A DNA stretch of 64,000 nt from an uncultured Staphylococcaceae bacterium. Its GTDB lineage: Bacteria; Bacillota_I; Bacilli_A; ML615J-28; CAG-313. The stretch lies in assembly GCA_964409955.1 (NCBI GenBank), contig CAYPEY010000001.1, positions 738 through 64,737 of the forward strand. Direction: 5' to 3'. Positions 37,766-64,000 of this stretch are shown here, one piece after another; position 1 is the first letter of the stretch; the number at the start of each line of letters is the position of its first letter. The notes beneath the pieces were generated by a model that had not been told where the DNA came from, searched no databases, and worked only from the letters and a program-made list of their open reading frames with translations. The position numbers and the translations under genes were made by a program.

Positions 37766-38527
37766 TTATTCCTTCTTTATGTATTCATTATTATATTCTT
37801 TTAAAATTCTAAAAAAAGTAGAACGTGAAACATTTAATTTCTTACATACTTCTTCAACCGATATTTTATTATTTTTATATTCTTCTATCATAGAATATAA
37901 AAATAACGGATCTATATCTTTTTTCTTTCTTCCTACTTTTTGAGTGTTATCCTTAAAGAAAAAATACGAATTATAATATAATTTTTTTAATATTATGTAA
38001 ATTTCTTTTCGGTTTTTATCATTTATTTCGATATCTTCTATAAAAACATTATAACCTTGACAAATATAATTTAATAAATTTTTTAAGTTTAAATTAACAT
38101 TTTTTTTGAAATCTTCGTTCTGTAATTTAATTACTTTATTATCATTTTTTCTTTCAACAAAAAAATTATCTCCTGAGTATTTATAATCTGTATTAATTAA
38201 CCATTCTAAGGGATTATAATAATCTAGACCGGCTTCCATTAGTTCTTCATATAAATTTTCTCTATTTTTCATAGGGCATCTTTCTGATATAAATACTGGC
38301 ATAATATTTTCTCTAACATATTCTTCTTTTTTTAATTCCAAATTTAAGCCTGGAATGCCTTGAAAAAAATCATCATTTGTCAATTCTATAATATTATAAT
38401 TAGGTTTGAATATAAACTTATAACTTTCATCTTCTTTGATAATATATTCAATTTCACAAACTGAATATGTTAAATTCAATTTATCTTTAATTTTTATTTC
38501 CGCAATTGTTGAATAATAATTCATCAT
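37766..38527 (-). CDS. Hypothetical protein with a C-terminal resolvase-type HTH, downstream partner of the HipA-like kinase
   Basis: ISVEEVCKKLNVSRSTFFRILKEY near the C-terminus. It overlaps the kinase ORF by 41 nt. Confidence 0.6.
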   Translation of the reverse strand: MMNYYSTIAEIKIKDKLNLTYSVCEIEYIIKEDESYKFIFKPNYNIIELTNDDFFQGIPGLNLELKKEEYVRENIMPVFISERCPMKNRENLYEELMEAGLDYYNPLEWLINTDYKYSGDNFFVERKNDNKVIKLQNEDFKKNVNLNLKNLLNYICQGYNVFIEDIEINDKNRKEIYIILKKLYYNSYFFFKDNTQKVGRKKKDIDPLFLYSMIEEYKNNKISVEEVCKKLNVSRSTFFRILKEYNNEYIKKE

Positions 38528-39383
38528 TTTCCTCCTGTTTCAATTTTTCATAAGATGCTTTTAGGATTAACTCATATCTTTGTTTTATTATGTGTTTATA
38601 AAATTTTTTATGAGTTTCACTTATAAATTCAGTATTATCTATTATTTCATTTATTTCATCTATAGAAATTTTACCATATATCTTCTTTAATGCATCATTA
38701 CACTCTTTGAATTGCAAAGAATTTATAACTTCATAATAAGAACTTTTTTTATTATTTAATTTAATTTGAGATGTTGGAAAAGTAAAAACTCTTAAATCTG
38801 TTTCTTTTTTTGAAGTTATAACTTCTATCATTTTAGACTCATCTATCATTTGAGGAAATAAACAAGACCCATTATCAAAAACAGGTGCTAGTTTGTATTT
38901 ATTTTTTTCTTTCAAAAACCCCCAATTTCCTCCATGTCTATCAAAATTACCGAGTAAAGCATCTACTATATACATTTCCCAGAAAAAGTCAATTGTCTCA
39001 TCTACATTAGTAATTTTCTGGTTCTCACAAAGCATACTAATAATCTCTTCATATGAATATTGATACTTTTCCTTATCTTCTTCTATACTTGATTCTCCAA
39101 TATCATTAAATGGTATAAACTGAGTGTTACCATTTACAAAATCCTTGCACGCTACAACTTGTTCTTTGTTATATAATCCTAAATATACGAGTTGTGTTTC
39201 AAACCCTAAATAAGAAAAAATTTTACTACCCAAATATTCTGATATATGATTAAATCTTTTTCCAAATTGCGTATTTTTTTGAAATTTTATCATATAATTA
39301 TTTTTATTAATTATTATACCTATTTTCCTTTCAGAACCCCCATATCTAATTTTACTTAATTCATATTTACTAAAATCAAACAT
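38487..39383 (-). CDS. HipA-like Ser/Thr kinase (C-terminal kinase core only)
   Basis: GGSERK Gly-rich loop, LLGNFDRHGGNWGFL catalytic motif, and APVFDNGSCL. Confidence 0.75.
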   Translation of the reverse strand: MFDFSKYELSKIRYGGSERKIGIIINKNNYMIKFQKNTQFGKRFNHISEYLGSKIFSYLGFETQLVYLGLYNKEQVVACKDFVNGNTQFIPFNDIGESSIEEDKEKYQYSYEEIISMLCENQKITNVDETIDFFWEMYIVDALLGNFDRHGGNWGFLKEKNKYKLAPVFDNGSCLFPQMIDESKMIEVITSKKETDLRVFTFPTSQIKLNNKKSSYYEVINSLQFKECNDALKKIYGKISIDEINEIIDNTEFISETHKKFYKHIIKQRYELILKASYEKLKQEENDELLFNNCGNKN

Positions 39384-41700: not shown

Positions 41701-41907
41701 TTACGCCTTTGTACGAGCTTCGATATACAGATCAATATCATTGATAATATATTTATGTCCCGTGGTGTGCAACACTCCATAAAAAGCATCAAGATATTCA
41801 AACACTTTGTATTTTTCAAAAAGTTCTTGGGTCATAATACCAGTCATACCTTTTTCTGCTTTATACATTTCAAAGCAAAAGGTTTTAAATTGTAATGTTT
41901 TACTCAT
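41701..41907 (-). CDS. DUF3791-family protein
   Basis: 68 aa. FCFEMYK...LFEKYKVFEYLDAFYGVLHTTG..YIINDIDLYI matches my memory of the DUF3791 consensus. Confidence 0.7.
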   Translation of the reverse strand: MSKTLQFKTFCFEMYKAEKGMTGIMTQELFEKYKVFEYLDAFYGVLHTTGHKYIINDIDLYIEARTKA

Positions 41908-41908
41908 A

Positions 41909-42142
41909 CTATACCTCCGGAAATTCTAATTTTCCATTCATTTCCCTATCAAATAATTCAACAATCATTTCAGAACTATACTGCCATACTTTCGTATCTT
42001 CTTTTTCAAGCACCTTGTAAAGTTCAGATTTATGAAATAATGCCATAGCCTTATTTTCGTCAATTTCATATTTATCCATTATCTTAGTGATTATATCGGG
42101 AGTAATCATAGCCATTAAAACTGAAAATCTATCTTTGTTCAT
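41909..42142 (-). CDS. DUF3791-like small protein (second copy)
   Basis: 77 aa helical protein in the same operon. It resembles DUF3791 more weakly than the 68-aa protein does. Confidence 0.55.
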   Translation of the reverse strand: MNKDRFSVLMAMITPDIITKIMDKYEIDENKAMALFHKSELYKVLEKEDTKVWQYSSEMIVELFDREMNGKLEFPEV

Positions 42143-42622
42143 TTATTTTTCCTCCGCCCCAATAAACTTTAAATATGTTAAAGATTTTTCAGTATGAAAT
42201 AATACTTGGTTATAAAGTTTCTCAACCTTCAATCTCTTTAATGCTTCTTTTAAATCGTAAACGCCAATTTCATAAAATCTAACAACTTCATAAACTCCAT
42301 CATCGGCAACAGGACCTATAACAATATCGTATGTTTCTTGGCACTGTCCTTTGCGGTTAATAGAAACAAAATCTAACCATTCCTTATCCGCTTTATCAAA
42401 ATGAATAATCTTTAATTTGGATTTTGCTTTTTCAATATCAAATTCATACATTGAAACATATCCGATATTTGTTCCTTTCCTACTTTTTTGCTTTTCAGCC
42501 CATTTGATAGCTTGCTCTTCATTCATAGTAGTATAAAAACCATAACCAAAATCTAAATATCTGTCACTAACTCTTATTTCAGGCTTTTCCACAACAAAAA
42601 GACTCCCGTGATATACTTTCAT
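42143..42622 (-). CDS. DUF3990-family protein
   Basis: MKVYHGS...LDFGYGFYTT..EEQA.KWA is the characteristic DUF3990 N-terminal signature. Confidence 0.75.
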   Translation of the reverse strand: MKVYHGSLFVVEKPEIRVSDRYLDFGYGFYTTMNEEQAIKWAEKQKSRKGTNIGYVSMYEFDIEKAKSKLKIIHFDKADKEWLDFVSINRKGQCQETYDIVIGPVADDGVYEVVRFYEIGVYDLKEALKRLKVEKLYNQVLFHTEKSLTYLKFIGAEEK

Positions 42623-45383: not shown

Positions 45384-45475
45384 AAAATCACTCCTTTATT
45401 TGTCATTATTTATTATTATACCATTTATTAAAATTATTTACAAACAATTAAATATTAAAGTATTTAATTGTTATT

Positions 45476-45568
45476 TTTTACACCTACAAAGGAAATATTG
45501 TAATCGATGGCTTCATTAGCATTAACAGTGCTATTGTTATCGCAATACCTACAAAGGAAATATTTTGT
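45476..45568 (-). CRISPR. Orphan, diverged two-repeat CRISPR remnant
   Basis: ACCTACAAAGGAAATATTGTAAT starts at 45482 and CGCAATACCTACAAAGGAAATATT at 45541. Both match the main repeat (GCTGCAATACCTATAAAGGAACTATTGTAAT) and share the same two substitutions. They are spaced 65 nt apart, the same period as the main array. Confidence 0.6.
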
Positions 45569-45579
45569 TTTTAAATTTT

Positions 45580-45618
45580 ATTCTATCATCTCTATATTTA
45601 ATATAGAGATGATAGAAT
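45580..45618 (-). terminator. Perfect 18-bp hairpin directly after the 2042-aa ORF
   Basis: attctatcatctctatat-tta-atatagagatgatagaat, with A/T runs on both sides. Confidence 0.65.
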
Positions 45619-45625
45619 TATGTTT

Positions 45626-48600
45626 TTAAATTAATTTACCATGAGATGTAGCCCATCTATATACATATTCTAAGCGTTCATAATTTTTCTTACTTAGAAC
45701 AGCTTGTCCATAATTAAATGCTTCTAAAGTACATCTAAATAAATCTTCTTGAGACAATCTTCCTTGCACTCTAATTATTTGATTCATTGCACATAGGATT
45801 TCTTCTTTTGGAATATCATTTAAATCACGATCACTATTAGTTCTAAATACAGACATATCTTTTGACTGATTTTGTGACCAATATACAGTTTGTGATTGAT
45901 CAAGTGTAGAATATTCATTAAATACCCTAAGTGCTGATTGTAATCTATTTTTAGCTTTAGCACTCATACTTTGAATATTAGAATGTTCTCTGACTCTCAT
46001 TTTAATAGTTTCAAATGATACCGGACTTTCTGTTAGAATTATTTCAGATAACAACTTTTGAATTTCACGATCAAATCCATAGTCATTATCATAATCCACG
46101 CAAATTCTAGTTTGTACCTTTATATAATTTGTGCTATTATAACTGAATACCGGAACTACAGCTTTTTCTATATGAGCATCAATTTGATATTCTTCTCTTA
46201 CATATGGTTCACTCATAGCATCAACAATCTTATCAATAGTAGCTTTTCTATCTTTAAAGTATTCAAGTGAATAAATATTAACTATTTTCCATTTTAAAGC
46301 ATTTAATACCGATTCTTGAACGTATATTTTATCTCTACAACTAATTTCTTCACCTAAAACTTGTGAGTCTATTAATATACCTAATTCATAGAAATCACCA
46401 GTTTTATTCTTAATAGCAAGGTCAACTCTAAAATCACTATTACCTACATTAGAAACCACTGTCAATCCTCTGGTTTCTAAATCTTTTTTAATAAAGGAAA
46501 TAATAGTGCCTTTTTCAGCACTTTCATCTTTGAAAGGTTTGAAAGTATTTTCTTCAGCAAATTTTAAGAATTGTTTTAATAACAATTTTCCTTTATTAGA
46601 TATTTTCGAATCTTCCTCAAAATCAGTATATTTAATTGTTGAAATGACAATCATTCTTTCTTTACTTCTACTTACAGCAACATTTAATCTTCTTTGACCA
46701 TTTTCTCTTGCTAGTGGTCCTACAACTACAGCTCTACCTGCTGCATTTTTTCTAAATCCTACTGAAAGTATAATTATGTCACGTTCGTCACCTTGAACAT
46801 TTTCAAGTGACTTAACAAACCAAGCCTCACCTGTTTTATCAAACGCTTCTTCTACTACTTTATTTAACTTTTTATTATTAGCTAATAATTCTGTAATCGC
46901 ATCAAATACTTTTTCTTGTTGTTTCATATTAAACACTATGATCCCTACAGATTTTTTCATTGTTTTTTCGTTTGTATAAATTTCTGTAAATTTATCACAA
47001 ATAGCTTTAATTTCTTCTTCAGTTATATTAGAATTTTTCTTATCTTCTTTTAATTCTACGTGATTATATTCAACAAAGCTATTTGCTGTATTAGGTGATG
47101 GGAAAGTATATAATGTATCATTATAGAAATTATGATTAGAAAAGCTAATTAATGATTCATGTTTACTTCTATAATGATATGCTAATCTTATTCGTGGAAG
47201 TTCTATTGCAATACATTCATCAAGTAATGAGATAGCATCATCAAATTGAACTTCATCTTCTGCTAGTTCAAGTCCTGCAGAAAAGTATGCAGAAGGGGGC
47301 ATTTGTTCGGGGTCACCTGCAACAATTAAAGATTTTCCTCTTGCGATTGGTCCAACTGCTTCATGAGTCGGAATTTGGGATGCTTCATCAAAAATTACTA
47401 AATCAAATTTAGAAACCGATTTACCTTTTTCTTCATCTACTGCAAGATATTGTGCAGCACTTAGTGGTGACATCAAGAAACAAGGGAAATATTTTTTAAT
47501 AATATCATCATAATTCAATAATGTATCTCTTATTGTAACACCACGTCCATTACTAGAAATTGATTTTTTAAGTCTTCCTATTGGAGATGAATTAGCATAA
47601 TTAATATTACTATGATTTAAATTCTTTGTTAATCTTGCGGATACACATTCAATTACTAAATTATTATATTCATTAATTAAATCTTTATATTTTCTTACTT
47701 CACTTTCAAATACAGTTGGATTGAAATAATTGATTTCATCATCTTTAAAATACATTCTTATGTATCCATTTACACAAGATAAATCATACACTTCTTTAAA
47801 GTCATTAAAATCAAATTTATCTTGTTCAATTGCATCAACAAGTTTATTTAAATTCAATTTAACAAGTTCTTTAGCAATTCTATTAACATTAGCTATATCA
47901 ATTAATTCATTAAAATTATTTTCATAAGATGTGTATTCTAACAAATCAATAAATTTATTTATATTATCAGATAATCCATTAAAATTACTATATTTTATTT
48001 TATATTTTTCAGTAAGTTTAATTTCTTCTTCTTTATAAGTTGTTAATTTATTAGCATTTATAGTATACATCATTTTAATAGCAGGATTTTTTGTAGCATA
48101 TAAATTAATAAATAAATTAGATACTTTTATAAAATCTTTATTTTCAGATAAAATATTTAAATTATTTAAGAAACTTCTTGTATTATAATAAGTCTTTTCA
48201 ATATTTTTTACATCTTCAATATTTTCAGAAAAACTGAAGTTTATCATCTTAGATAATGTAGTTGATTGTTCTTGTATTTCTTTAATTAAACTATTATACT
48301 CTTTAATTTGTTCAAAATATGAAGATAAATCTTTTTTATTAATTTTATGCGTTTCTAGAACATATTTCTTTAATAATTTCTTTAAGCGTCCTTTAACTAA
48401 GATTTTTTTAATAAAACCTGTTGCATTATTAATTTCATTTATCGCTGCTTCAGCATCTACTTCACTTAACAAATCAAAATTAAATACATCTTTGTTAGTA
48501 TTTTTGATAGTTACAATTTTGTGAGCTTTATCAAATACTTTTTGATTTTTATCATCATTTTGATTTGACATAAATTCAGTTAAAGTCTCAATATATAATT

Positions 48601-51600
48601 TATGATTTAAACATAAATCAATTGTTGACATAACTGTTGCTACTTCATTATGCTCAAAATCAAATTCTATATCAAAATTAGCAACCATTTCTTTATAAGA
48701 TTTTATGAAATCAAATAATAATGTTTTGACATTACTAAAAGATTCTATAACATTTGCACGATCATAAAAATTGATGTTTTCAATTTTTAATGTTTTAAGT
48801 GGGGTATTATTGAAATCTTGCATATTTGATGCAGAAGAAATATAAGTTTCTATTAAACTATATATTTCACGATTTTTTTCATCATTTAATGATAATAAAA
48901 ATTCTTCATCAAATTCACTATTATAATCTAAATAACTTAATTCAGCTTGTTTTACTATTGCATCGTACAATGAATAGTAATATTTGTTTTCATGCATTTT
49001 ATTAATTGTTTGTAAAACTTTATCTCTTTTTGCTTCTAATTCTTGACATTTTTGCTCAAACTCTTCTGGGTTTTTAGTTACACCAAGTTCCATTGAAGAT
49101 TTTAATTTTTCAAAGAATTCGACTTTATTTGCTTTATTAGAATGTAGTTCAAGACAAAATCTTCCTAAGTTATTATTTGAATTAGGATCTCCTAATTTCT
49201 TTAATCTATCTGCAACAACATCTAGGGCTGCTTTTTTTTCAGCAACAAACAATACTGTTTTACCTTGATAGAAGGCATTAACAATCATATTAACAATTGT
49301 TTGAGATTTTCCTGTTCCCGGAGGACCATCAAGAATAAATGATTTTCCTTCTCCACATTTTAAAATAGCTTTCAACTGAGTTGAATCATAATAAAGTGGT
49401 GCAGCAAAATCTTTATATTTTTCAAGTTTATCAATAGAATCATCAAATGTTGTAACATTGTCAGTTAATAAATTCTTGTTTTCCAATATACTTTGGATAA
49501 CTACGTTCTTCTTAAGTTCTTCTTTTCTTTTTCTAACATCAAGCCACATAATATAATGAGCAAAAGTTAAGTTAGCAATAAAGAAAGCTTCTTCATCTAA
49601 TTGAATATCTTCGATATTATTTGCTTTAAATGTGTGAACAATATCCATGTAATTATCATTTGAATTAATTTGATATAGTTCACTAAAATCAATGTCTGGA
49701 TGTTCTTGCTTATAATATTCAAAGAAAGTTTGGTTTATCATTATATCATCATAATCATAATGCATTGTATAATTATAATTCATCTTGTCTTTTGTTATTT
49801 TAATAGGTAATACCATAAATGGCGCATTTCCTTTTAAATGTCCTTTTTTACGATTATATGTTAATAACCCAAGACATAAATACAATGTTGGAGCACCGGT
49901 TTCATCCATTGCAGAATTTGATTTTTTAATCAAATTCTTTAATGTTTGGTCATAACCAATGGCAAGCATTTTATCACTACCAAATTCATCACCAAAAATT
50001 TCAAATGGTTTAGCACTACCAAGCATAAATTCATTTTCTAATGTTTTTGATGTAACATTGCTATTTTCTAGAGGAAAAGTAGCAAATTTTATAGCACCTT
50101 GATTATTTAATAGAAGTTCATAGATTTTACTATCACTAGTCATTTTTAAACAATTTGATGTTCTTAAATGAAAGTTAACTAGTGGATTTGCTTCTGTTAA
50201 ATCTAGTAATCTTCTTTCCCAAAAAGTAAATCGGTCTTTTTCGGTTTCTCTTAATACATCTTTATAAATTGTTTCAACAATACTATCTAAATTTTTATTT
50301 TCGATTTCCTTTGGTTTAATTAATAATTCTAATTCATCATCAACACCTATTGTTGGAATTGGTGTAAAAATGCCTTTATGAGCAAGTTTTACATCGATTG
50401 CGGAGAAGCTTCTTCCATTGTACATCTTGATATTTAATAATCCTTCATCCATTGCATCTTTAAAAGAGGCTTCTTTTGCTGCAGTAAACATTGTACATTC
50501 AACAAGAACTAATTTATCCATCCCACCAGTTGCTTGATTATATACTTTACCACATTGATATTCAACAGCGTTAGGGAAATTTAATTTATCATCTAAAAAG
50601 AATCCCGCAAATGCATGATTATCAATAAGCACTAAGATTGAATTATATCCTACTTCTTGCATACAAGCGCAATATAATATTGCTAAATCAAGACAAGTCC
50701 CCTTTTTATCATTTAAAACTTCACCAGGCATTCTTACTCTTTGTGTAACAAGTCCACCTGCAGGTGGATTTTGATAAACAATTCCCCAATCATGTAAAGC
50801 AAGATAAATCGCTTGTGCTTCTTCTAACATTTTATTATATCTATCTTTACCAACATGTTGGTAAGCTATGATTTCTTCATTATTATTAAATTTTGTAGCA
50901 TTTAAAGCAATTTGTTTTACTCTTGAATCTACAGGAGTAATATATTTAGCATATAATCTATAATCATTATGAATATTTATAGAAGGTTCACAAATAGGGT
51001 GGACAATAAATCTTTCTTCAGAAGATGCTATTGTTTTGCCATCCTCTTGATCTATTAATTGAATCTCTACTGTTGCAGTATCGTTTTCAGTAAGTTTTTC
51101 TAATAATGCTTTATTTACCTTTAGGAAAGGTATTCTAATTTCTAATATTTCACAAGTTCCAAGTTTTATAATATGAACATCGTTCATATTAAAAATTTCA
51201 CTTGAAAAAGAAAATTTTAAAAGTAAGTTTGAATATTCATAACTTGTAATATTAGCAATCACAATTTCTTGTATTAAGGAATAGTCTGTTGTATATAAAT
51301 CATCTTTAATTTTCATCAAGCAGTCAGCATGATGATCAACATATGAAAATTCTGGATTTACAAATGAAACGATTTCTAATCTTTCTTCTAATTCAATATT
51401 ATCTTGTTTTTTATATTTCAATTTCTTTTTCAAGTTTTCGATAATTTTTTCTTTTTTATTTGTATTATCATTATTTGTCTCTTCTTGAACCTCTGTTTTT
51501 TGTTCATTATCATTATTTTCTTTTATAGTAGGTTCTATAAATTTATTTGTTACTTTTTTTAATTCAGAAATAGGATAACGAGAACTTTCTTTTTCAACAT

Positions 51601-51754
51601 ATTGGATTTCTAATACTTTAATCTTTTCTGATTTTTCTTCAACATTAACAAAATCTCCAACATTTATGTCTTCAATATCACATAAATATACATACGTTTC
51701 ATAAGAGTCTTCTATTCTACCTATTATTATCTTATATTCCTTATTTTCTAGCAT
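45626..51754 (-). CDS. 2042-aa multidomain protein: transglutaminase-like Cys-protease fold, DUF4011, Upf1-like SF1 helicase (AAA_11/AAA_12) with a long helical insert, REase-like domain and DUF3320
   Basis: KKGTCLDLAILYCACMQ...DNHAFAG gives the TGase-like Cys/His pair (aa about 350-385). RRLLDLTEANPLVNF is the DUF4011 signature (aa about 515). Helicase motifs: Walker A GPPGTGKS (aa 809-816), FDEASQ (1455-1460), VAGDPEQMPP, YHYRS, QGDERD and RRLNVAVSRSK. DFRVDLAI...ELGILIDS (aa about 1774-1796) is Vsr/DUF559-like. The C-terminal part looks like DUF3320. Confidence 0.8.
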   Translation of the reverse strand: MLENKEYKIIIGRIEDSYETYVYLCDIEDINVGDFVNVEEKSEKIKVLEIQYVEKESSRYPISELKKVTNKFIEPTIKENNDNEQKTEVQEETNNDNTNKKEKIIENLKKKLKYKKQDNIELEERLEIVSFVNPEFSYVDHHADCLMKIKDDLYTTDYSLIQEIVIANITSYEYSNLLLKFSFSSEIFNMNDVHIIKLGTCEILEIRIPFLKVNKALLEKLTENDTATVEIQLIDQEDGKTIASSEERFIVHPICEPSINIHNDYRLYAKYITPVDSRVKQIALNATKFNNNEEIIAYQHVGKDRYNKMLEEAQAIYLALHDWGIVYQNPPAGGLVTQRVRMPGEVLNDKKGTCLDLAILYCACMQEVGYNSILVLIDNHAFAGFFLDDKLNFPNAVEYQCGKVYNQATGGMDKLVLVECTMFTAAKEASFKDAMDEGLLNIKMYNGRSFSAIDVKLAHKGIFTPIPTIGVDDELELLIKPKEIENKNLDSIVETIYKDVLRETEKDRFTFWERRLLDLTEANPLVNFHLRTSNCLKMTSDSKIYELLLNNQGAIKFATFPLENSNVTSKTLENEFMLGSAKPFEIFGDEFGSDKMLAIGYDQTLKNLIKKSNSAMDETGAPTLYLCLGLLTYNRKKGHLKGNAPFMVLPIKITKDKMNYNYTMHYDYDDIMINQTFFEYYKQEHPDIDFSELYQINSNDNYMDIVHTFKANNIEDIQLDEEAFFIANLTFAHYIMWLDVRKRKEELKKNVVIQSILENKNLLTDNVTTFDDSIDKLEKYKDFAAPLYYDSTQLKAILKCGEGKSFILDGPPGTGKSQTIVNMIVNAFYQGKTVLFVAEKKAALDVVADRLKKLGDPNSNNNLGRFCLELHSNKANKVEFFEKLKSSMELGVTKNPEEFEQKCQELEAKRDKVLQTINKMHENKYYYSLYDAIVKQAELSYLDYNSEFDEEFLLSLNDEKNREIYSLIETYISSASNMQDFNNTPLKTLKIENINFYDRANVIESFSNVKTLLFDFIKSYKEMVANFDIEFDFEHNEVATVMSTIDLCLNHKLYIETLTEFMSNQNDDKNQKVFDKAHKIVTIKNTNKDVFNFDLLSEVDAEAAINEINNATGFIKKILVKGRLKKLLKKYVLETHKINKKDLSSYFEQIKEYNSLIKEIQEQSTTLSKMINFSFSENIEDVKNIEKTYYNTRSFLNNLNILSENKDFIKVSNLFINLYATKNPAIKMMYTINANKLTTYKEEEIKLTEKYKIKYSNFNGLSDNINKFIDLLEYTSYENNFNELIDIANVNRIAKELVKLNLNKLVDAIEQDKFDFNDFKEVYDLSCVNGYIRMYFKDDEINYFNPTVFESEVRKYKDLINEYNNLVIECVSARLTKNLNHSNINYANSSPIGRLKKSISSNGRGVTIRDTLLNYDDIIKKYFPCFLMSPLSAAQYLAVDEEKGKSVSKFDLVIFDEASQIPTHEAVGPIARGKSLIVAGDPEQMPPSAYFSAGLELAEDEVQFDDAISLLDECIAIELPRIRLAYHYRSKHESLISFSNHNFYNDTLYTFPSPNTANSFVEYNHVELKEDKKNSNITEEEIKAICDKFTEIYTNEKTMKKSVGIIVFNMKQQEKVFDAITELLANNKKLNKVVEEAFDKTGEAWFVKSLENVQGDERDIIILSVGFRKNAAGRAVVVGPLARENGQRRLNVAVSRSKERMIVISTIKYTDFEEDSKISNKGKLLLKQFLKFAEENTFKPFKDESAEKGTIISFIKKDLETRGLTVVSNVGNSDFRVDLAIKNKTGDFYELGILIDSQVLGEEISCRDKIYVQESVLNALKWKIVNIYSLEYFKDRKATIDKIVDAMSEPYVREEYQIDAHIEKAVVPVFSYNSTNYIKVQTRICVDYDNDYGFDREIQKLLSEIILTESPVSFETIKMRVREHSNIQSMSAKAKNRLQSALRVFNEYSTLDQSQTVYWSQNQSKDMSVFRTNSDRDLNDIPKEEILCAMNQIIRVQGRLSQEDLFRCTLEAFNYGQAVLSKKNYERLEYVYRWATSHGKLI

Positions 51755-51953
51755 GTTATCCTCCCCTTTTTAATAAATTACTATTTTATATTATTATACA
51801 ATATATTTTGGCATTTTTCAATTTTAAAACTTGTTCTAAAAAACATGAGTTTTTCTTAAATATCAAAATTTAAAATACAAAAAACTTAATTATGACTAAA
51901 TTTAGCAGCTATTATAATTCTAAATATCATATACATTAATAATTATATTTTTC

Positions 51954-51989
51954 AAAAAGCGAAGAATCACGACGATTCTTCGCTTTTTT
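51954..51989. terminator. Bidirectional rho-independent terminator
   Basis: aaaaa-gcgaagaatc-acgac-gattcttcgc-tttttt. It separates the two-gene operon from the giant ORF. Confidence 0.8.
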
Positions 51990-52124: not shown

Positions 52125-52481
52125 TTATAAAGTTGCCATACAAGTTATTATAGCTTTTTTAGTTTTGAATACACCTAACTTGTATGTAATTTCAACTCTT
52201 AATTTTAGTTGATTTCCATTTAAATCACTTGTAGAAATACTTTGTTCCATTGTACCTTCATTAATTTTAATAGCCACTAATTTACCAGATTTAGATGTAT
52301 AATACCCTTCTATTTTTGTAATTTTTATATCTGTTTTCTTTTTAATCCTTAAATCCGTAACAAACTCATATTTTTTTACTTTTTTTAATAGCCCTGTTTC
52401 CACCACGCCATTAGTCTTAATAACCTTTAATGTAGCTATTAAATTATTGTCTTGTTCCTTTTGTAAATAACTATTTCCCAT
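52125..52481 (-). CDS. Hypothetical 118-aa Lys-rich, beta-rich protein
   Basis: AGGAGG lies 6 nt upstream of the ATG. That SD overlaps the stop of the upstream gene. No family recognised. Confidence 0.7.
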   Translation of the reverse strand: MGNSYLQKEQDNNLIATLKVIKTNGVVETGLLKKVKKYEFVTDLRIKKKTDIKITKIEGYYTSKSGKLVAIKINEGTMEQSISTSDLNGNQLKLRVEITYKLGVFKTKKAIITCMATL

Positions 52482-52490
52482 TGTATCCTC

Positions 52491-53426
52491 CTATTTTAAT
52501 ATAGTTTGTAATTTTAATACAACTTCACCAATATCTTTTTTAATTTTTCTTTTTTTATCAGTTACTTCTATTGTAGTTTTTTGCTTATTAAAGAGTTTCC
52601 CTGTATTATAAACTACCTCTTTTGTTTCTTTATAAGTTTGCGTAATATTGCAAACGAGATTTAATTTTATTTCTAAATTAACCTTGTTATTAGTTTGTAA
52701 ATCAATTTCTGATAATGGAACCAATAAAGAAATATTTTTTGAATCATTAACTTTTAAAACTTTATTTAACACTTCTCTTTTAGTTTTATTTACAGCATAT
52801 ACAATGCATTTTACATCCAAATTACCACCATTAATATTTAAAAATTTAAGTCTTATATTAGAAATTAATGTTTTTCTAAAATGATCTACTTTGCATTTTG
52901 AATCTAATTCAGCTAATATTTCTATATTATTAACTTTAACAACATGTTTATTTTGATCTTTATTAAAAAAATTTTTTTGGTCTTCTAGCACTATTTTTGC
53001 CTTACTAAAAGCAGTAATTTTTAAAGTATCAATTAAGGAATCACAAATATCATTATAAACTACCACTATAGACAGAATATCTACTTTTGGTAAACTATCT
53101 AACGTATGTTTGTTTTTATTTCCCAAAGAATTTACTTCTAGTACTGATAATAACTCACCAAGTTTAGGTCTTTTTAATACTTTGTTAGTTAAAAAATCTA
53201 TTCCAGCTAAACACGTGTGATTTCGTACCTTTGGGCCTATAACAATTTGCTCCACTATTAAGGCTAGCTTTGTAATTAAATTTTGCATACTATTAATAAA
53301 GACTGTTTGATATTTATTTAGAACGCATTCTGATGCACTATATTTAAATGCTTGGAATTCTTTTTGAAGTATTAAATTTTCTGCAATTCTATCAGCATTA
53401 TCAACTTTTGCTATTGTTCGATTCAT
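52491..53426 (-). CDS. Hypothetical 311-aa protein: helical N-terminal half with a GNKNKH motif, beta-rich C-terminal half
   Basis: TTGGAGG SD upstream of the ATG. No TM segments. VNSLGNKNKHT faintly recalls the R..GN...H motif of DUF4145-type HEPN-like domains, but it lacks the Arg. Confidence 0.7.
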   Translation of the reverse strand: MNRTIAKVDNADRIAENLILQKEFQAFKYSASECVLNKYQTVFINSMQNLITKLALIVEQIVIGPKVRNHTCLAGIDFLTNKVLKRPKLGELLSVLEVNSLGNKNKHTLDSLPKVDILSIVVVYNDICDSLIDTLKITAFSKAKIVLEDQKNFFNKDQNKHVVKVNNIEILAELDSKCKVDHFRKTLISNIRLKFLNINGGNLDVKCIVYAVNKTKREVLNKVLKVNDSKNISLLVPLSEIDLQTNNKVNLEIKLNLVCNITQTYKETKEVVYNTGKLFNKQKTTIEVTDKKRKIKKDIGEVVLKLQTILK

Positions 53427-53532: not shown

Positions 53533-53597
53533 TTTCAATACCTATTATAAATTAAGTATTATAGTACAATAAAAATAGTTAAAGAAACTATTGTAAC
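53533..53597 (-). CRISPR. Decayed repeat fragments at the trailer end of the array
   Basis: caatacctat at 53536-53545 and taaagaaactattgtaac ending at 53597 are recognisable pieces of the repeat. The second fragment is in register with the array (68 nt from repeat 1). Confidence 0.45.
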
Positions 53598-53634: not shown

Positions 53635-55787
53635 GATGCAATACCTATAAAGGAACTATTGTAATTATTACACCAGAAATCAAAGAATATATCACTATCA
53701 CTGCAATACCTATAAAGGAACTATTGTAATCAGATTAAAAGAACTGGAGGTCGCTCAAGAAGATAGCTGCAATACCTATAAAGGAACTATTGTAATTAAC
53801 TGGTGCTTGTCAATATGGTACTAATCGTTGGGCTGCAATACCTATAAAGGAACTATTGTAATGTAAAATGTAAATGGGAGGAAAAAGATTTTTATTTCAG
53901 CTGCAATACCTATAAAGGAACTATTGTAATTATCAACTTGTTAATAAAGAGTTTGTTCCATTATTGCTGCAATACCTATAAAGGAACTATTGTAATTTTT
54001 TGGAATAACTAAAGAAAATAAAAAATATTATTGCTGCAATACCTATAAAGGAACTATTGTAATTGGTTCAATTAATGTTTTAAGTGGCAAAAATCTTGCT
54101 GCAATACCTATAAAGGAACTATTGTAATATGAATTTAATTATTTTTGATACTGAAACAATTGGGCTGCAATACCTATAAAGGAACTATTGTAATATGAAT
54201 TTAATTATTTTTGATACTGAAACAATTGGGCTGCAATACCTATAAAGGAACTATTGTAATATTTAAGAGTTTATTTCACTACTCATAAGCCTAAAGCTGC
54301 AATACCTATAAAGGAACTATTGTAATGCTAAAGTCGAAATTATCGCAAATGCACAACCTGAAGCTGCAATACCTATAAAGGAACTATTGTAATGGTAAAA
54401 GTTATACATACAACAAAGATCAAATTGGCTGCAATACCTATAAAGGAACTATTGTAATCAACAAGAAAACTTAATCTCAACTAAAGTGGCTGAAGAGCTG
54501 CAATACCTATAAAGGAACTATTGTAATAAGAAATTTTTGCTTATGAAGCTGTAGAAAATTTATAGCTGCAATACCTATAAAGGAACTATTGTAATTTTTA
54601 GATATTGGTAGACCAGGTATTAAGTATAAGCTGCAATACCTATAAAGGAACTATTGTAATTGTTAAAGGAAGGGGCAACAAGTTTTAAATATATAGCTGC
54701 AATACCTATAAAGGAACTATTGTAATTATTACACTTAATAGTCCTCTTTCTAAAGAACAAAGCTGCAATACCTATAAAGGAACTATTGTAATACGAACTT
54801 AAAAATTTTGCTGATGAGAATAATGATGAGCTGCAATACCTATAAAGGAACTATTGTAATTAAATAAAGATTTTGATAATGTATCAATAAATCTGCTGCA
54901 ATACCTATAAAGGAACTATTGTAATTTTAACTTATGATAGTGTAGAAGTTGCTGTAACAGAGCTGCAATACCTATAAAGGAACTATTGTAATTAGTTGGG
55001 ATGATATCGAAGAAATGATAATTTATGGCGCTGCAATACCTATAAAGGAACTATTGTAATAAAACAAGAGGGGCGTATTTAGTTAGTCCAAACGAGCTGC
55101 AATACCTATAAAGGAACTATTGTAATTTTTGGATACTACAAAATGAATTTAACTATTGAAAGCTGCAATACCTATAAAGGAACTATTGTAATATGGCAGA
55201 TATAAAACAACAAGGTGTTAATAATCAAGCTGCAATACCTATAAAGGAACTATTGTAATGATAATCCAGACGGAAAGCCGCAAGCAAGTAATTAGCTGCA
55301 ATACCTATAAAGGAACTATTGTAATTTTTATTTATTAAAAGATAATAGAATAATTGATAGCGCTGCAATACCTATAAAGGAACTATTGTAATTTTAATAT
55401 TCGGAAAAGGAGAAGAAGATCCAAAAGGCTGCAATACCTATAAAGGAACTATTGTAATTATTATTAGAGGTTATTATGATGGTCATGCAAAAGGCTGCAA
55501 TACCTATAAAGGAACTATTGTAATAAGATTCTGACGCTTGGTTATGTACTGGTGCTCGTGCTGCAATACCTATAAAGGAACTATTGTAATGGTGGTATAG
55601 GTTCACAAGCAAAAGCTCTTAAAAAGCTGCAATACCTATAAAGGAACTATTGTAATTATTTACAAGTGAAAAAGGAAAAGAGAAGTTAGAGCTGCAATAC
55701 CTATAAAGGAACTATTGTAATTAGACGAATACATTATCAAACATACAACAAAAGAGGCTGCAATACCTATAAAGGAACTATTGTAAT
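53635..55787 (-). CRISPR. CRISPR array: 33 repeats of 30-31 nt with 32 spacers of about 34-37 nt
   Basis: Repeat (plus strand): GCTGCAATACCTATAAAGGAACTATTGTAAT. I located all 33 copies (first at 53635, last 55757-55787). The mutated and decayed copies are at the low-coordinate end and the AT-rich leader and cas2 are at the high end, so transcription is on the minus strand. In that orientation the repeat ends in ATTGCAGC. Confidence 0.97.
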
Positions 55788-55928
55788 AGGGGTTTTTAAA
55801 TATATTTTTAAAGTTTTTTTATGTTTTAAATTGTTTTTTAATTATTTTAGTTATTTTTTTATCGACCACCTTATATTTTTTTAATACTTTTTTATTATTA
55901 ATAAGTAAATTTTTATTTGATGGTCGAA
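55788..55928 (-). promoter_or_regulatory. CRISPR leader
   Basis: AT-rich, non-coding stretch of about 140 bp between cas2 and the newest repeat. Confidence 0.7.
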
Positions 55929-57174: not shown

Positions 57175-57895
57175 TTCTTTTTTTATTGACCATTCCAAGA
57201 CCACTTGAGTTCTTTGAACCTATTCCACAGGTTAATATTACTTTTTTTATTTGTGGGGTTAATCCAGATATTGTAAGTGTTAAATGATATGCAATAGTGA
57301 AATTTGATCTAAAGTATATCTTTTTCTTTTTTACTGAATTGATATCACTAATTTCAATTTCAGACATATTTTCTTTATAGATTAAATAATATTTTTTTGC
57401 TAAATTTTGAATAATAGCTTGTTTAAATTCTTCTGTAGTTGGTTCAAAATATTTAGTTTTTTTATTTTCATCTGTTATATAAGATGTAATAGGTGAAAGA
57501 GTAGTATAGGTTTCAATTTTTGTGTTATCACAAAAATCATCTAATAAATTATATGCTAAAACTTTTATTAACTGTTTACCAAATAATAATGTATTATTTT
57601 GAGTAATAAAATTTATAAAAGCTACTGTGATTTCATCATCATAAGATGTGAAATCAAAATATCCAGTATCAGAAAAATGAAGTTCTCTTGATTGTTCTAA
57701 GTATTGTGTATCTCCATAAATTTCTGAATATGTGAAAAGTTTAAATTTTCTTTTCCCAAGTGTAAACCCTTGGTCATGGATAGTTTGAATTTTATCATAA
57801 TTATATAAAGAATTATAAATTATTCCTTGTAACAAACTATGATATTGAACAGGAATTTTTTTATCTTTTAAATCTAATACTACTCTGATACGCAT
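57149..57895 (-). CDS. cas6: CRISPR endoribonuclease Cas6
   Basis: 248 aa. MRIRVVL...P.QYHSLLQG.IY start and the C-terminal Gly-rich loop GIGSKNSSGLGMV. Confidence 0.88.
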   Translation of the reverse strand: MRIRVVLDLKDKKIPVQYHSLLQGIIYNSLYNYDKIQTIHDQGFTLGKRKFKLFTYSEIYGDTQYLEQSRELHFSDTGYFDFTSYDDEITVAFINFITQNNTLLFGKQLIKVLAYNLLDDFCDNTKIETYTTLSPITSYITDENKKTKYFEPTTEEFKQAIIQNLAKKYYLIYKENMSEIEISDINSVKKKKIYFRSNFTIAYHLTLTISGLTPQIKKVILTCGIGSKNSSGLGMVNKKRNEKKNISN

Positions 57896-58578
57896 TTTAC
57901 GATACCTCCACCTATATATGCATATTTTCCAACACCTATATCTATTAATATAATAGGGTAATCTATAACTTCAGCTTGAAATATTTTACCTGATATTTTG
58001 ATTTTTTTATTATTAATTATATACTGCGTTTTATCTTTAAAGTCTAGTGAACTTCCAACATTTTTAAATGTTGGAAGTTTAAAAGATGTTTTATAAGTTT
58101 CATTAAAATATTTAATTGATGAGATTATATCTAAAGTATCAGTAACTACATTTTGGTATTTTATGATACCACTATAACATTTTTCTTCATCGATAATTGT
58201 ATTTTCTACTAATACTTTTTGATAGAAATTACCAGCTAAATATTCATCAGAATCCATAAACGTAGTTATGAATTCTGAATAATTCATCGCAACTCCGATT
58301 AAGTTAAAAGTAACCTGAAAGGTTTCTTTTGGACCATATGATCTTTTGTTAGCTAGATTTCTATTTATTGTAATACTTGGATATTGTTCAAAGTTTTCTC
58401 CTGATAATAAATAATAAATACATTTGAATTCTTTTGTACAATTTAAACAATCTTTATCACTAATACAACAACAAGAACATATTTCTTGGTAGATCTTTTT
58501 TAAAAGTATAATCTCTGGATCTTTTTGAAAATTAGCTCCAAGCGGAAATCTAATATTGTATTTAATTCTTCTAATCAT
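57880..58578 (-). CDS. Unclassified RAMP-like protein with a Cys cluster and a C-terminal Gly-rich loop
   Basis: 232 aa. Contains CSCCCISDKDCLNCTKEFKC, and GVGKYAYIGGGIV at the C-terminus. It sits between csm5 and cas6 and overlaps both neighbours. Confidence 0.55.
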   Translation of the reverse strand: MIRRIKYNIRFPLGANFQKDPEIILLKKIYQEICSCCCISDKDCLNCTKEFKCIYYLLSGENFEQYPSITINRNLANKRSYGPKETFQVTFNLIGVAMNYSEFITTFMDSDEYLAGNFYQKVLVENTIIDEEKCYSGIIKYQNVVTDTLDIISSIKYFNETYKTSFKLPTFKNVGSSLDFKDKTQYIINNKKIKISGKIFQAEVIDYPIILIDIGVGKYAYIGGGIVKCVSE

Positions 58579-61945: not shown

Positions 61946-64000
61946 TTATCCTCTCTTTCTTGTTTTCATTAATGCCATCGCAAAAACGATTTTATAAAAT
62001 TCTATTACTTCTTTTTTAACTTCTTTTACAACAAATATTTGTCTTAATTTTTCAAACCATTTTTCATTCATATTTCTCTTTATTGAATATGCAATTAATG
62101 GAATGAAACGCATAAAGGCATGTTCTGAATTATTTACTTCAAGACTTCTAATTATATATTCATAAATTTCATATAATCCGCTTCTTGATAAAGTTTCATC
62201 TAATAAACCTTTTTCAAATACTTCTATTTCTTCTAATAAATAATTCATTTTAGAATTATTTAAAGTTACTCCAAGGAGGTTAAATGAATTTTTATTATCT
62301 TGTAGTTTAGATTCTGATAAATTGTCTTCTGCTCTTTCAATTGAATATCTTACTGGTGATTTTGAAGAAAAGAATTCAATACCAGCACTAATATGTAATG
62401 ATTTATTATAACCTGTGAATTTACTAAATTCATAGTTGATATCTTTAACAAGTTCTAAAACCATAGATGCTGGAGAAATAATAACTAAGTCATCTCCTCC
62501 GGCATAATTTATATACATACTTTCTTTAAACTTAGGTTGATTGCATATATTCACAATTTCTTTTGAGAAGAAATAATCAACCATACGAGAAAGTGTTAAG
62601 TTTTTAGATATTGTTTCTTTACTTTGTTTAATACCATTTAAGAATATATAACCTAAATTATCAACGTCCATTTTAAGTACTGCTAATTTATCATCACCGG
62701 TACTGTTTTTCGCAATTTCTTCAAATGACTTAGATCCTATATTAGATTTAGCATAAAGTTTTGTTTCACCTATTTTGTAATTATTAACAGATACATAATA
62801 AGAATCAACATTTTCTAAAACAAATTTCTTAGCAGAATACATTCTAATTGTTCCAAGTCCATTTACTTTAACTATTGCTTCAGCTTTACTATCATTATTT
62901 AAATAATCATATTCAATAATAAACTCATCATATGAAGTAAGTACTCTATCGTTAATTTTTAATAGTGTATCGCAGAAACTACATACTTCTTCGTTATTAA
63001 CTTTATTAGAAAAACATATTGGACATAAACAGAAATCTTTGTTTTCTTCATTTAAATCAATATTATTTAATATTGATTTAAATTTTTTCTTTTTATCACT
63101 TATGAATGTAACGCCTTCACGAACTAAATCATCAATTTGTGATTTAATTAACCCTTCATCATCTACTTCTGTATAAGCTATTGAAAAACTAATATCACAG
63201 TTATGCATTTTAAACATTGCTTGTTCGATTTTAACTGCAATTTCTTTTAATTTTTCTTCAAAGTTAGGACCTTTAGTTACTAATATTCTTCCACGTCCAC
63301 CAGATGAATAAAGAACATTTTCATAAGTTACCCCAAATTCGTTAACAATATAATATGCAATAAAATCAGTTAAAACACTTAAATAAAATGATCTTGTTCT
63401 TAAGTGTTTAGCTACTTTGGGTTTAGATTCTCTTCCTTCAGCAACCTTGTAAATGAATTTTTGAATTCCTGAAATATCATAATCAATTAAAGCATAATTA
63501 GCATTTTCATCTTTCTCTAAGCAATTAGCTATTGCTGTAGTAAGTTTCAAGTGATCAAATAAACTAATAGTTGATACACCTTTTTTATCTACATATCCAG
63601 GTACAGTAACAGTATTTTCTTTAATAATTGGATATAAAAGATGATGTAGTTCTTTATAATCTTTATACCCTTTATCATTCATTTCTTTTAAAGCAAGTTC
63701 TAAATTATTATATAAATTTTTATATTCAATTTTACTTGCATCAAGTAATTTCTTTTCAACATATTTTTGATTTAATAATGCTTTTGCTGAAGTTAATTTA
63801 AGTTCATAACGTTCATTAACTTGATTTTTATCAATGTTAATTTCATTAAAAATTGTATCTAAACGAGTTATACTATTATTATCTTTTTCATTATCTATTT
63901 TTTCATATTCACTTAATATTTGTTCACTAAGATCTTTTCGGTCGTGACCAGTCGCAATATAATCAGCTTTCTTAATAATAGAATTTGAATATTGATGATA
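61946..64000 (-). CDS. cas10: Cas10/Csm1, partial (N-terminus lies beyond the window edge)
   Basis: GGDD lies at 62489-62500 (YAGGDDLVI), and a CxxC...CxxC zinc finger is present. The track starts this ORF at the Met at 63682. My manual translation shows the frame stays open from 63683 to 64000 (YHQYSNSIIKKADYIATGHDRKDLSEQ...), which fits the end of an HD domain. Confidence 0.9.
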   Translation of the reverse strand, partial: YHQYSNSIIKKADYIATGHDRKDLSEQILSEYEKIDNEKDNNSITRLDTIFNEINIDKNQVNERYELKLTSAKALLNQKYVEKKLLDASKIEYKNLYNNLELALKEMNDKGYKDYKELHHLLYPIIKENTVTVPGYVDKKGVSTISLFDHLKLTTAIANCLEKDENANYALIDYDISGIQKFIYKVAEGRESKPKVAKHLRTRSFYLSVLTDFIAYYIVNEFGVTYENVLYSSGGRGRILVTKGPNFEEKLKEIAVKIEQAMFKMHNCDISFSIAYTEVDDEGLIKSQIDDLVREGVTFISDKKKKFKSILNNIDLNEENKDFCLCPICFSNKVNNEEVCSFCDTLLKINDRVLTSYDEFIIEYDYLNNDSKAEAIVKVNGLGTIRMYSAKKFVLENVDSYYVSVNNYKIGETKLYAKSNIGSKSFEEIAKNSTGDDKLAVLKMDVDNLGYIFLNGIKQSKETISKNLTLSRMVDYFFSKEIVNICNQPKFKESMYINYAGGDDLVIISPASMVLELVKDINYEFSKFTGYNKSLHISAGIEFFSSKSPVRYSIERAEDNLSESKLQDNKNSFNLLGVTLNNSKMNYLLEEIEVFEKGLLDETLSRSGLYEIYEYIIRSLEVNNSEHAFMRFIPLIAYSIKRNMNEKWFEKLRQIFVVKEVKKEVIEFYKIVFAMALMKTRKRG

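Follow-up and report, generated by a model that had tools for sequence, protein, structure and literature searches.

A single giant gene lies between a clustered regularly interspaced short palindromic repeat (CRISPR) array and a short remnant of such repeats in an uncultured Staphylococcaceae bacterium, and this arrangement raises the question of whether its product works together with the CRISPR system or constitutes a defense protein in its own right. The DNA analyzed here, referred to as the window, is a stretch of 64,000 nucleotides (GenBank assembly GCA_964409955.1, contig CAYPEY010000001.1, positions 738 to 64,737 of the forward strand). The gene occupies 45626..51754 on the minus strand as an open reading frame (ORF) of 2042 amino acids plus a stop codon with an ATG start, as stated in an original prediction made from the letters of the window. 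That prediction described a fusion of transglutaminase-like, DUF4011, helicase, nuclease-like and DUF3320 segments bracketed by CRISPR repeats, and it proposed a stand-alone or CRISPR-linked defense or RNA-surveillance protein that has not been characterized. We find that the last of these statements does not hold, as the family is already named ProA in NCBIfam and is listed in PADLOC as candidate PDC-S37.

Relationship to the ProA and PDC-S37 families

The giant protein matches NCBIfam model NF058533, "anti-phage protein ProA", with 1198 bits against a curated cutoff of 1500, and the alignment runs unbroken from aa 155-2015 of the window protein across positions 6-1901 of the 1903 in the model. 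It also matches PADLOC PDC-S37, which we take to be a candidate system in the 2023 PADLOC database that is not validated, at E = 6.5e-238 with aa 507-2018 aligned to model positions 8-1518 of 1550 (97% of the model). The PDC-S37 model begins at the DUF4011 domain and is without the N-terminal transglutaminase-like module described below.

A scan of species-representative genomes recovered at least 592 loci encoding relatives, and these span Bacillota, Bacteroidota, Proteobacteria, Verrucomicrobiota and other phyla. Four relatives score above the ProA cutoff, from Myroides (1983 bits), Pedobacter (2237 bits), Paenibacillus (2216 bits) and a Lachnospiraceae metagenome-assembled genome (MAG; 2131 bits), and they are colinear with the window protein at 28-29% identity. 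The window protein itself belongs to a clade of ~45 full-length relatives that share 33-67% identity and come mostly from gut or rumen MAGs labelled Bacilli or Acholeplasmatales. ProA scores in this clade range from 1045 to 1463 bits, forming a continuum that reaches just below the cutoff. Because of this continuum and the end-to-end colinearity, the window protein is read as a divergent branch of ProA and not as a new kind of protein. We consider it probable that the giant gene is a divergent ProA/PDC-S37 member from a low-GC lineage that encodes a single-polypeptide anti-phage protein, with Hhe as its sister family. The defense role put forward in the original prediction is likely, given the anti-phage label that both catalogs attach to the family and the defense and mobile contexts in which its relatives are found.

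Membership in two better-known groups was considered and rejected. Hhe, which Gao et al. are said to have described in 2020 as a DUF4011 helicase with a Vsr-like endonuclease, resembles the window protein in its DUF4011 domain, its Upf1-like helicase with a long insert and its MTES_1575/Vsr-type fold, but the Hhe model (NCBIfam NF042953) scored 520 bits against a cutoff of 2000 and aligned to aa 1059-1849 alone. Many DUF4011 relatives outside the ProA-like clade are likewise without the canonical Glu of the nuclease fold and likewise carry the N-terminal module. Mokosh is similar in the RecA2 half of its COG1112/Upf1-like helicase, with partial matches to MkoA (E = 4e-26) and MkoC (E = 3e-18). 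Unlike Mokosh, the window protein has no PLD nuclease in the Pfam scan, as the original prediction had stated, lacks a partner of the MkoB type and differs in the domains at both of its ends.

Domain architecture and conserved residues

Pfam and model scans gave the domain order that had been predicted, with DUF4011, AAA_11, AAA_12 and MTES_1575 all above their gathering scores. Two regions were additionally examined as structure models, aa 120-720 with AlphaFold2 (mean predicted local distance difference test score, pLDDT, of 87; predicted template modeling score, pTM, of 0.81) and aa 1440-2042 in a second model (pLDDT 84). The DUF4011 domain (aa 515-679; 49718..50212, on the minus strand as are all features of the giant gene) was found at E = 9.3e-19, and its motifs are invariant in an alignment of close relatives. 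It is followed by a Upf1-like superfamily 1B (SF1B) helicase core at aa 789-1706 (46637..49390), recognized through AAA_11 and AAA_12, in which motifs I, Ia, II, III, IV, V and VI are intact, in agreement with the claim of a complete motif set. The sequences GPPGTGKS, DEAS, GDPEQMPP, YHYRS, QGDERD and RRLNVAVSR are invariant in a 22-sequence alignment of close relatives. Walker A, GPPGTGKS, occupies aa 810-817 with K816 as its Lys, so that the motif was correctly recognized but had been placed one residue too early (aa 809-816, K815). The sequence FDEASQ lies at aa 1455-1460 as predicted, with DEAS itself at aa 1456-1459.

A PDB sequence search with the whole protein returned helicase matches only (IGHMBP2, Sen1 and Upf1) and no solved structure of the family. 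Foldseek searches with the second model identified IGHMBP2, Dna2, Upf1, Sen1, Aquarius and ZNFX1 at E = 1e-10 to 1e-8. The window protein shares with these eukaryotic helicases (Sen1 also as SETX) the SF1B motor fold and an insertion between motifs I and II, and it differs from them in a far longer insert, in its fusion to transglutaminase-like, DUF4011 and restriction-endonuclease folds, and in its prokaryotic defense context. The insert separates motif II from the end of the motif I/Ia region and comprises ~580 aa (861-1440; 47435..49174), close to the ~600 aa first estimated. Its content of Pro and Gly is 2.8%, as compared with 5.5% for the whole protein, and it is presumed to be helical as the original prediction had it. 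No Pfam domain was found in the insert, which is covered by the ProA model and in part, from ~aa 1059, by the Hhe model.

The N-terminal third of the protein begins with a clade-specific extension of ~125 aa that consists of a small domain (aa 1-70) and a Lys/Glu/Asn-rich linker (aa 71-124), together at 51383..51754. This extension occurs in only about half of the close relatives, is absent from the ProA model and has no significant Pfam match. The AlphaFold2 model that starts near its end resolves into three parts, namely an all-beta sandwich (~aa 126-251), an alpha/beta core and the DUF4011 alpha/beta domain. The sandwich (aa ~125-255; 50990..51382), with strands at model residues 7-132, is Ig-like as judged from the model and from Foldseek matches to CARDB, MG and PapD-like domains.

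The core that follows (aa ~290-470; 50345..50887) appears to be transglutaminase-like, with a papain fold. It contains the Cys/His pair of the original prediction as Cys354 (nt 50693-50695) in GTCLDLAILYCACMQ at aa 352-366 and as His380 (nt 50615-50617) in DNHAFAG at aa 378-384, and the third member of the triad is the acidic residue Glu419 (codon at nt 50498-50500). When this segment was scanned alone, Pfam Transglut_core gave 20.2 bits against a gathering score of 23 (E = 7.6e-4) and DUF553 gave 18.1 bits against 20.5 (E = 0.002); a distant homolog (P0202) scores above the Transglut_core gathering score. The pair proved to be conserved, as detailed below; the family assignment of the window protein itself lies under the Pfam threshold. 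Foldseek matches to the core are weak (best E ~1e-3) and include TG2/TG3, PNGase and the putative cysteine proteases 3isr and 3kd4. Matches of the family profile to PDB sequences are also weak (E = 0.1-0.3), and five of the six cover the Cys motif, two of them named transglutaminase-like and three being DRC7 or lobo-like ciliary proteins. Weak as they are, the Pfam, Foldseek and PDB-profile matches agree in indicating transglutaminase-like proteins. In the AlphaFold2 model, where the geometry of the triad was judged from the positions of secondary-structure elements, Cys354 is found where a helix begins, a strand starts at His380, and the strand after it is followed by Glu419, a modeled placement that fits what is expected for a papain/transglutaminase fold.

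Conservation across the family provides the best evidence for this module. In the 22-sequence alignment neither Cys354 nor His380 varies, and among 54 full-length family members the two residues are both present in 43, both absent in nine and split in two. Position 419 is Glu in 42 of the same 54 proteins and Asp in 10 (acidic in 52/54). That Cys and His are kept or lost together argues for a working dyad, and the pattern suggests that the transglutaminase-like module is enzymatically active in most family members. The combination of sandwich and transglutaminase-like module was found in 2460 cluster representatives, nearly always at the N-terminus of proteins of ~1900-2200 aa. Additional domains were also observed ahead of this module, as an extra DUF4145 (HEPN-like), SWIM or DUF4428 domain precedes it in P0161, P0143, P0172, P0225 and P0236, and the last two of these proteins are apparently without a helicase.

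C-terminal to the helicase is a restriction-endonuclease fold of the MTES_1575, or Vsr/DUF559, type at aa 1755-1846 (46217..46492), found with 49.4 bits against a gathering score of 38.2 (E = 5e-13). The second model has an alpha-beta-beta-beta-alpha-beta nuclease fold at aa 1751-1848, and in Foldseek searches with that model the nuclease domain was masked by the helicase. D1778 is kept in at least 90% of 22 clade members, D1796 is invariant, and conservation extends to R1807 and D1808. In the window protein Leu1794, within ELGILIDS at aa 1790-1797, takes the place of the Glu that is canonical in the (I/V)E(C/V)DG motif. A hydrophobic residue stands here in 22/22 clade members, as it does in many Hhe-like DUF4011 proteins; ECDG is retained by more distant relatives. 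The loss of the Glu noted in the original prediction is therefore confirmed by alignment, but it is not peculiar to this sequence, and from the alignments the missing Glu is a trait of the whole ProA-like clade. The remainder of the protein consists of a DUF3320-like segment (aa 1896-1930) and a C-terminal helical domain (together 45629..46069). The DUF3320 call was correct in order and position but scored 23.7 bits, under the gathering score of 25; the ProA model covers this tail up to aa 2015, and the structure model contains helices there.

The architecture as a whole is shared with ProA, which likewise has a beta-sandwich, a transglutaminase-like module with Cys, His and an acidic residue, DUF4011, an SF1B helicase with a long insert, MTES_1575 and a DUF3320 tail. 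ProA is also alike in having a hydrophobic residue at the position of the nuclease Glu and in being a single gene with variable neighbors. The window protein differs from ProA in its sub-cutoff score and its distance from the proteins that pass the cutoff, in the extra N-terminal domain and linker of ~125 aa, and in its place within a low-GC clade of Bacilli/Acholeplasmatales type.

Transcription signals and CRISPR flanks

The giant gene is preceded by a promoter-like site, TTGAAA-17-TATAAT, at 51793..51821 on the minus strand (11/12 positions agree), with its function predicted from sequence, and by a strong Shine-Dalgarno sequence, AGGGGAGGA, at ~51759-51767 on the same strand ahead of the ATG. 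Further upstream, a hairpin at 51954-51989 carries a U-run on the strand of the giant gene and, at -20.1 kcal/mol (z = -6.0), is a strong bidirectional intrinsic terminator that isolates the gene from two upstream orphan ORFs. The original prediction had assigned terminators to both sides, and of these the upstream one stands. The downstream hairpin at 45580-45618, directly past the stop codon, is very stable, with an 18-bp stem (-22.9 kcal/mol, z = -9.2). As only the plus strand carries a T-run, this hairpin is not a canonical intrinsic terminator for the giant gene. With its own promoter-like site, Shine-Dalgarno sequence and upstream terminator, the giant gene is, as far as these predicted signals indicate, a stand-alone transcription unit.

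CRISPR repeats do bracket the gene, as was originally claimed. On the upstream side is a type III-A array of 33 repeats (53635..55787, plus strand; 0 expected by chance in the repeat search) that sits downstream of a type III-A cas operon and 1.9 kb from the giant-gene start codon. A probable leader (55788-55928) adjoins cas2, and the cas genes extend from 55929 to beyond 63682. The operon includes cas10, a 184-aa ORF (csm2 by position), csm3, csm4, csm5, a 232-aa ORF, cas6, cas1 and cas2. The cas10 frame is open to the window edge (63683-64000, minus strand), so that the listed ORF of 578 aa represents just the C-terminal portion of Cas10, whose N-terminal region is encoded outside the window. 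No csm6 or other CARF effector was recognized within the stretch of the operon that the window covers. The 232-aa ORF (57880-58578, minus strand) between csm5 and cas6 has no NCBIfam match and a faint Cas6 match (E = 1.5e-4). Within the array, the adjacent spacers 54129-54163 and 54195-54229 are identical over 35/35 nt. No self-targeting spacers were found, nor any spacer matches elsewhere in the window.

On the downstream side two decayed repeats separated by a single 34-nt spacer form a remnant mini-array (45474..45569, plus strand) that starts 57 nt beyond the giant-gene stop codon. The two repeats (45474-45504 and 45539-45569) each match at 23/31 positions and have the substitutions T14C and C22A in common. 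Across the intervening DNA, decayed pieces at 53533-53546 and 53580-53597 correspond to the 5' half and the 3' half of the repeat, respectively, and lie ~34 nt apart. Between the array trailer and the giant gene are two orphan ORFs of 311 aa and 118 aa (52125-53426, minus strand). They have no Pfam, NCBIfam or PADLOC match, form singleton clusters and have no homolog in the related loci searched; because of this and of the terminator that separates them from the giant gene, they are treated as outside its system and were ruled out as partners. The N-terminal string GNKNKH of the 311-aa ORF may resemble a DUF4145/HEPN-type motif. In Logan, contigs with this 311-aa ORF are interrupted at the array.

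The simplest account of these flanks is that a cassette of ~8 kb, comprising the 311-aa and 118-aa ORFs, the terminator, the giant gene and the downstream hairpin, was inserted close to the trailer end of the array, cutting off its two oldest repeats. A second scar of this insertion may be represented by the repeat pieces at 53533-53546 and 53580-53597. No direct or inverted repeats bound the cassette beyond the CRISPR repeats themselves, and the cassette contains no recognizable mobility gene. A metagenome scan with the variant of the remnant repeats gave 60 single matches, at chance level and in unrelated environmental contigs, and no uninterrupted array. The repeats on both flanks look like the result of co-location in an island, with no functional coupling to CRISPR indicated.

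Genomic context, rival explanations and proposed mechanism

Other candidate defense genes in the window are a PDC-M13-like trio (DUF3791/DUF3990) at 41701-42622 (best E = 1e-61 to PADLOC PDC-M13) and a gene for a HipA-like kinase at 38487-39383 (PADLOC PDC-M03A, E = 2e-32). Together with the type III-A locus these place the giant gene in a loose defense island, with housekeeping genes (M18 aminopeptidase, PfkB kinase) lying between the candidates. Neighbors of the relatives vary among seven annotated contexts (L081, L082, L084, L087, L088, L089 and L090). For example, L081 is a mobile element with a serine recombinase, a MutH/Dcm pair and GmrSD, L084 has the mobile-element genes DpnD-PcfM, RhuM, ParB and SNF2, and L090 has RE_LlaJI upstream of the relative. 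A total of 462 plasmid records include a relative, and among 124 ORFs that flank relatives at 16 loci there were PADLOC matches to Wadjet JetA/JetB, MTase_II, PDC-S01/S06, HEC-01A, Cas1/Cas4, RT, AriA and MADS. Mobile elements, plasmids and defense islands are the settings of many relatives, but not of all, as is discussed below.

A DUF2130 gene lies upstream of the giant gene in four close relatives (L081 3356-4846; L084 7892-9346; L087 6390-7994; L090 3105-4481), with 36-46% identity among the copies, and L084 and L090 have in addition a homologous ORF of ~173 aa between the DUF2130 gene and the giant gene. No DUF2130 gene is present in the window or in 80 genome loci. It may be a partner specific to one subclade, or it may travel with the relatives as cargo of the same mobile element.

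Several observations weigh against an anti-phage ProA assignment. The ProA score is under the equivalog cutoff, so that function is transferred by homology only, and a literature search for ProA and PDC-S37 found no describing paper, the functional label coming from the NCBIfam and PADLOC catalogs. The transglutaminase-like assignment rests on several matches that are individually weak, and the obvious effector, the nuclease, may be dead as its canonical Glu is absent. Additionally, the neighbors in L082, L087, L088 and L089 are mostly housekeeping genes, and in P. aeruginosa a gene with DUF4011, reported there as a flanking gene, belongs to the conserved core (PMC10250203). DUF4011 otherwise appeared in the literature search as the insertion site of an integrative and conjugative element in M. 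hominis and in one Hhe annotation.

The housekeeping neighbors and the core-gene status would both be expected of a genome-maintenance helicase-nuclease that functions in DNA repair, R-loop removal or RNA quality control and is merely located near defense genes. Upf1-like helicases such as Upf1, Sen1, Dna2 and IGHMBP2, to which the fold is matched, act in RNA surveillance and DNA maintenance. Such a role is nevertheless unlikely in view of neighbors that differ from locus to locus, relatives that are scattered over distant phyla and present on plasmids and mobile elements, neighboring ORFs that often match defense models, the classification of the family as anti-phage by both NCBIfam and PADLOC, and the location of the giant gene in a block of 24-27% GC shared with the cas genes. 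We find it less credible still that the protein serves its carrier element in inter-element competition, for example through anti-plasmid or anti-conjugation activity or through maintenance of the element, rather than in defense against phage as such. This would suit the closest relatives, which are found in elements with recombinase, ParB, DpnD-PcfM, RhuM and DUF2130 genes, and the many relatives on conjugative plasmids, but defense systems routinely ride on mobile elements, the family label is anti-phage, and the cassette of the window has no recognizable gene for mobility.

The explanation to which we give the least weight, and which we hold to be very improbable, is that the giant gene is an accessory of the adjacent type III-A system, either as an ancillary effector or as a factor that is transcribed together with the array or processed from it. 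Repeats on both flanks, an orientation of the giant gene that agrees with presumed array transcription, the lack of a recognized csm6-like effector in the cas operon and matches of a few relatives' neighbors to Cas1/Cas4 models all speak in its favor. Set against this, no CARF, SAVED or other cyclic-oligoadenylate sensor was found in the Pfam, PADLOC and NCBIfam scans, the giant gene is set apart from the array side by a strong terminator and by a promoter-like site of its own, a CRISPR-like repeat pattern occurs in only 2/84 related loci, and the closest relatives have quite different neighbors. The comparative context thus largely refutes a CRISPR accessory, the assignment as a type III ancillary effector was rejected, and the "CRISPR-linked" part of the original prediction falls with it.

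For the preferred assignment as a divergent ProA protein, the following mechanism is proposed. DUF4011 and the helicase would be loaded on phage nucleic acid that is invading or replicating, sensing it by ATP-driven 5' to 3' translocation. Engagement of nucleic acid by this motor would license an effector, which could be residual nicking by the restriction-endonuclease fold or, about equally likely, a cysteine hydrolase or transglutaminase-like module that acts on a protein target, and the action of the effector would stop phage replication. A more specific proposal, which in its entirety we regard as rather doubtful, is that the Vsr fold is a dead recognition module, that the transglutaminase-like enzyme is the effector and that the cassette recombined into the array at the repeats. 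In that case engagement of foreign nucleic acid would trigger the enzyme, whose target, a protein of the phage or of the host, would be cleaved, deamidated or cross-linked, and lineages without the Cys and His would have switched to another output.

The divergent ProA assignment has consequences for both the family and the locus. As the nuclease-fold Glu is absent clade-wide, the effector of the family may be a domain other than the nuclease fold. For genome annotation it matters that the curated ProA cutoff misses a colinear clade, and the finding adds to the giant defense helicases of the ProA/Hhe type a divergent branch from low-GC gut and rumen bacteria of Bacilli or Acholeplasmatales type that carries an N-terminal extension. 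No new CRISPR-associated function is indicated by the position of the giant gene inside the array, but this position may record how defense islands grow. If true, recombination at CRISPR repeats would make arrays landing pads for other defense genes.

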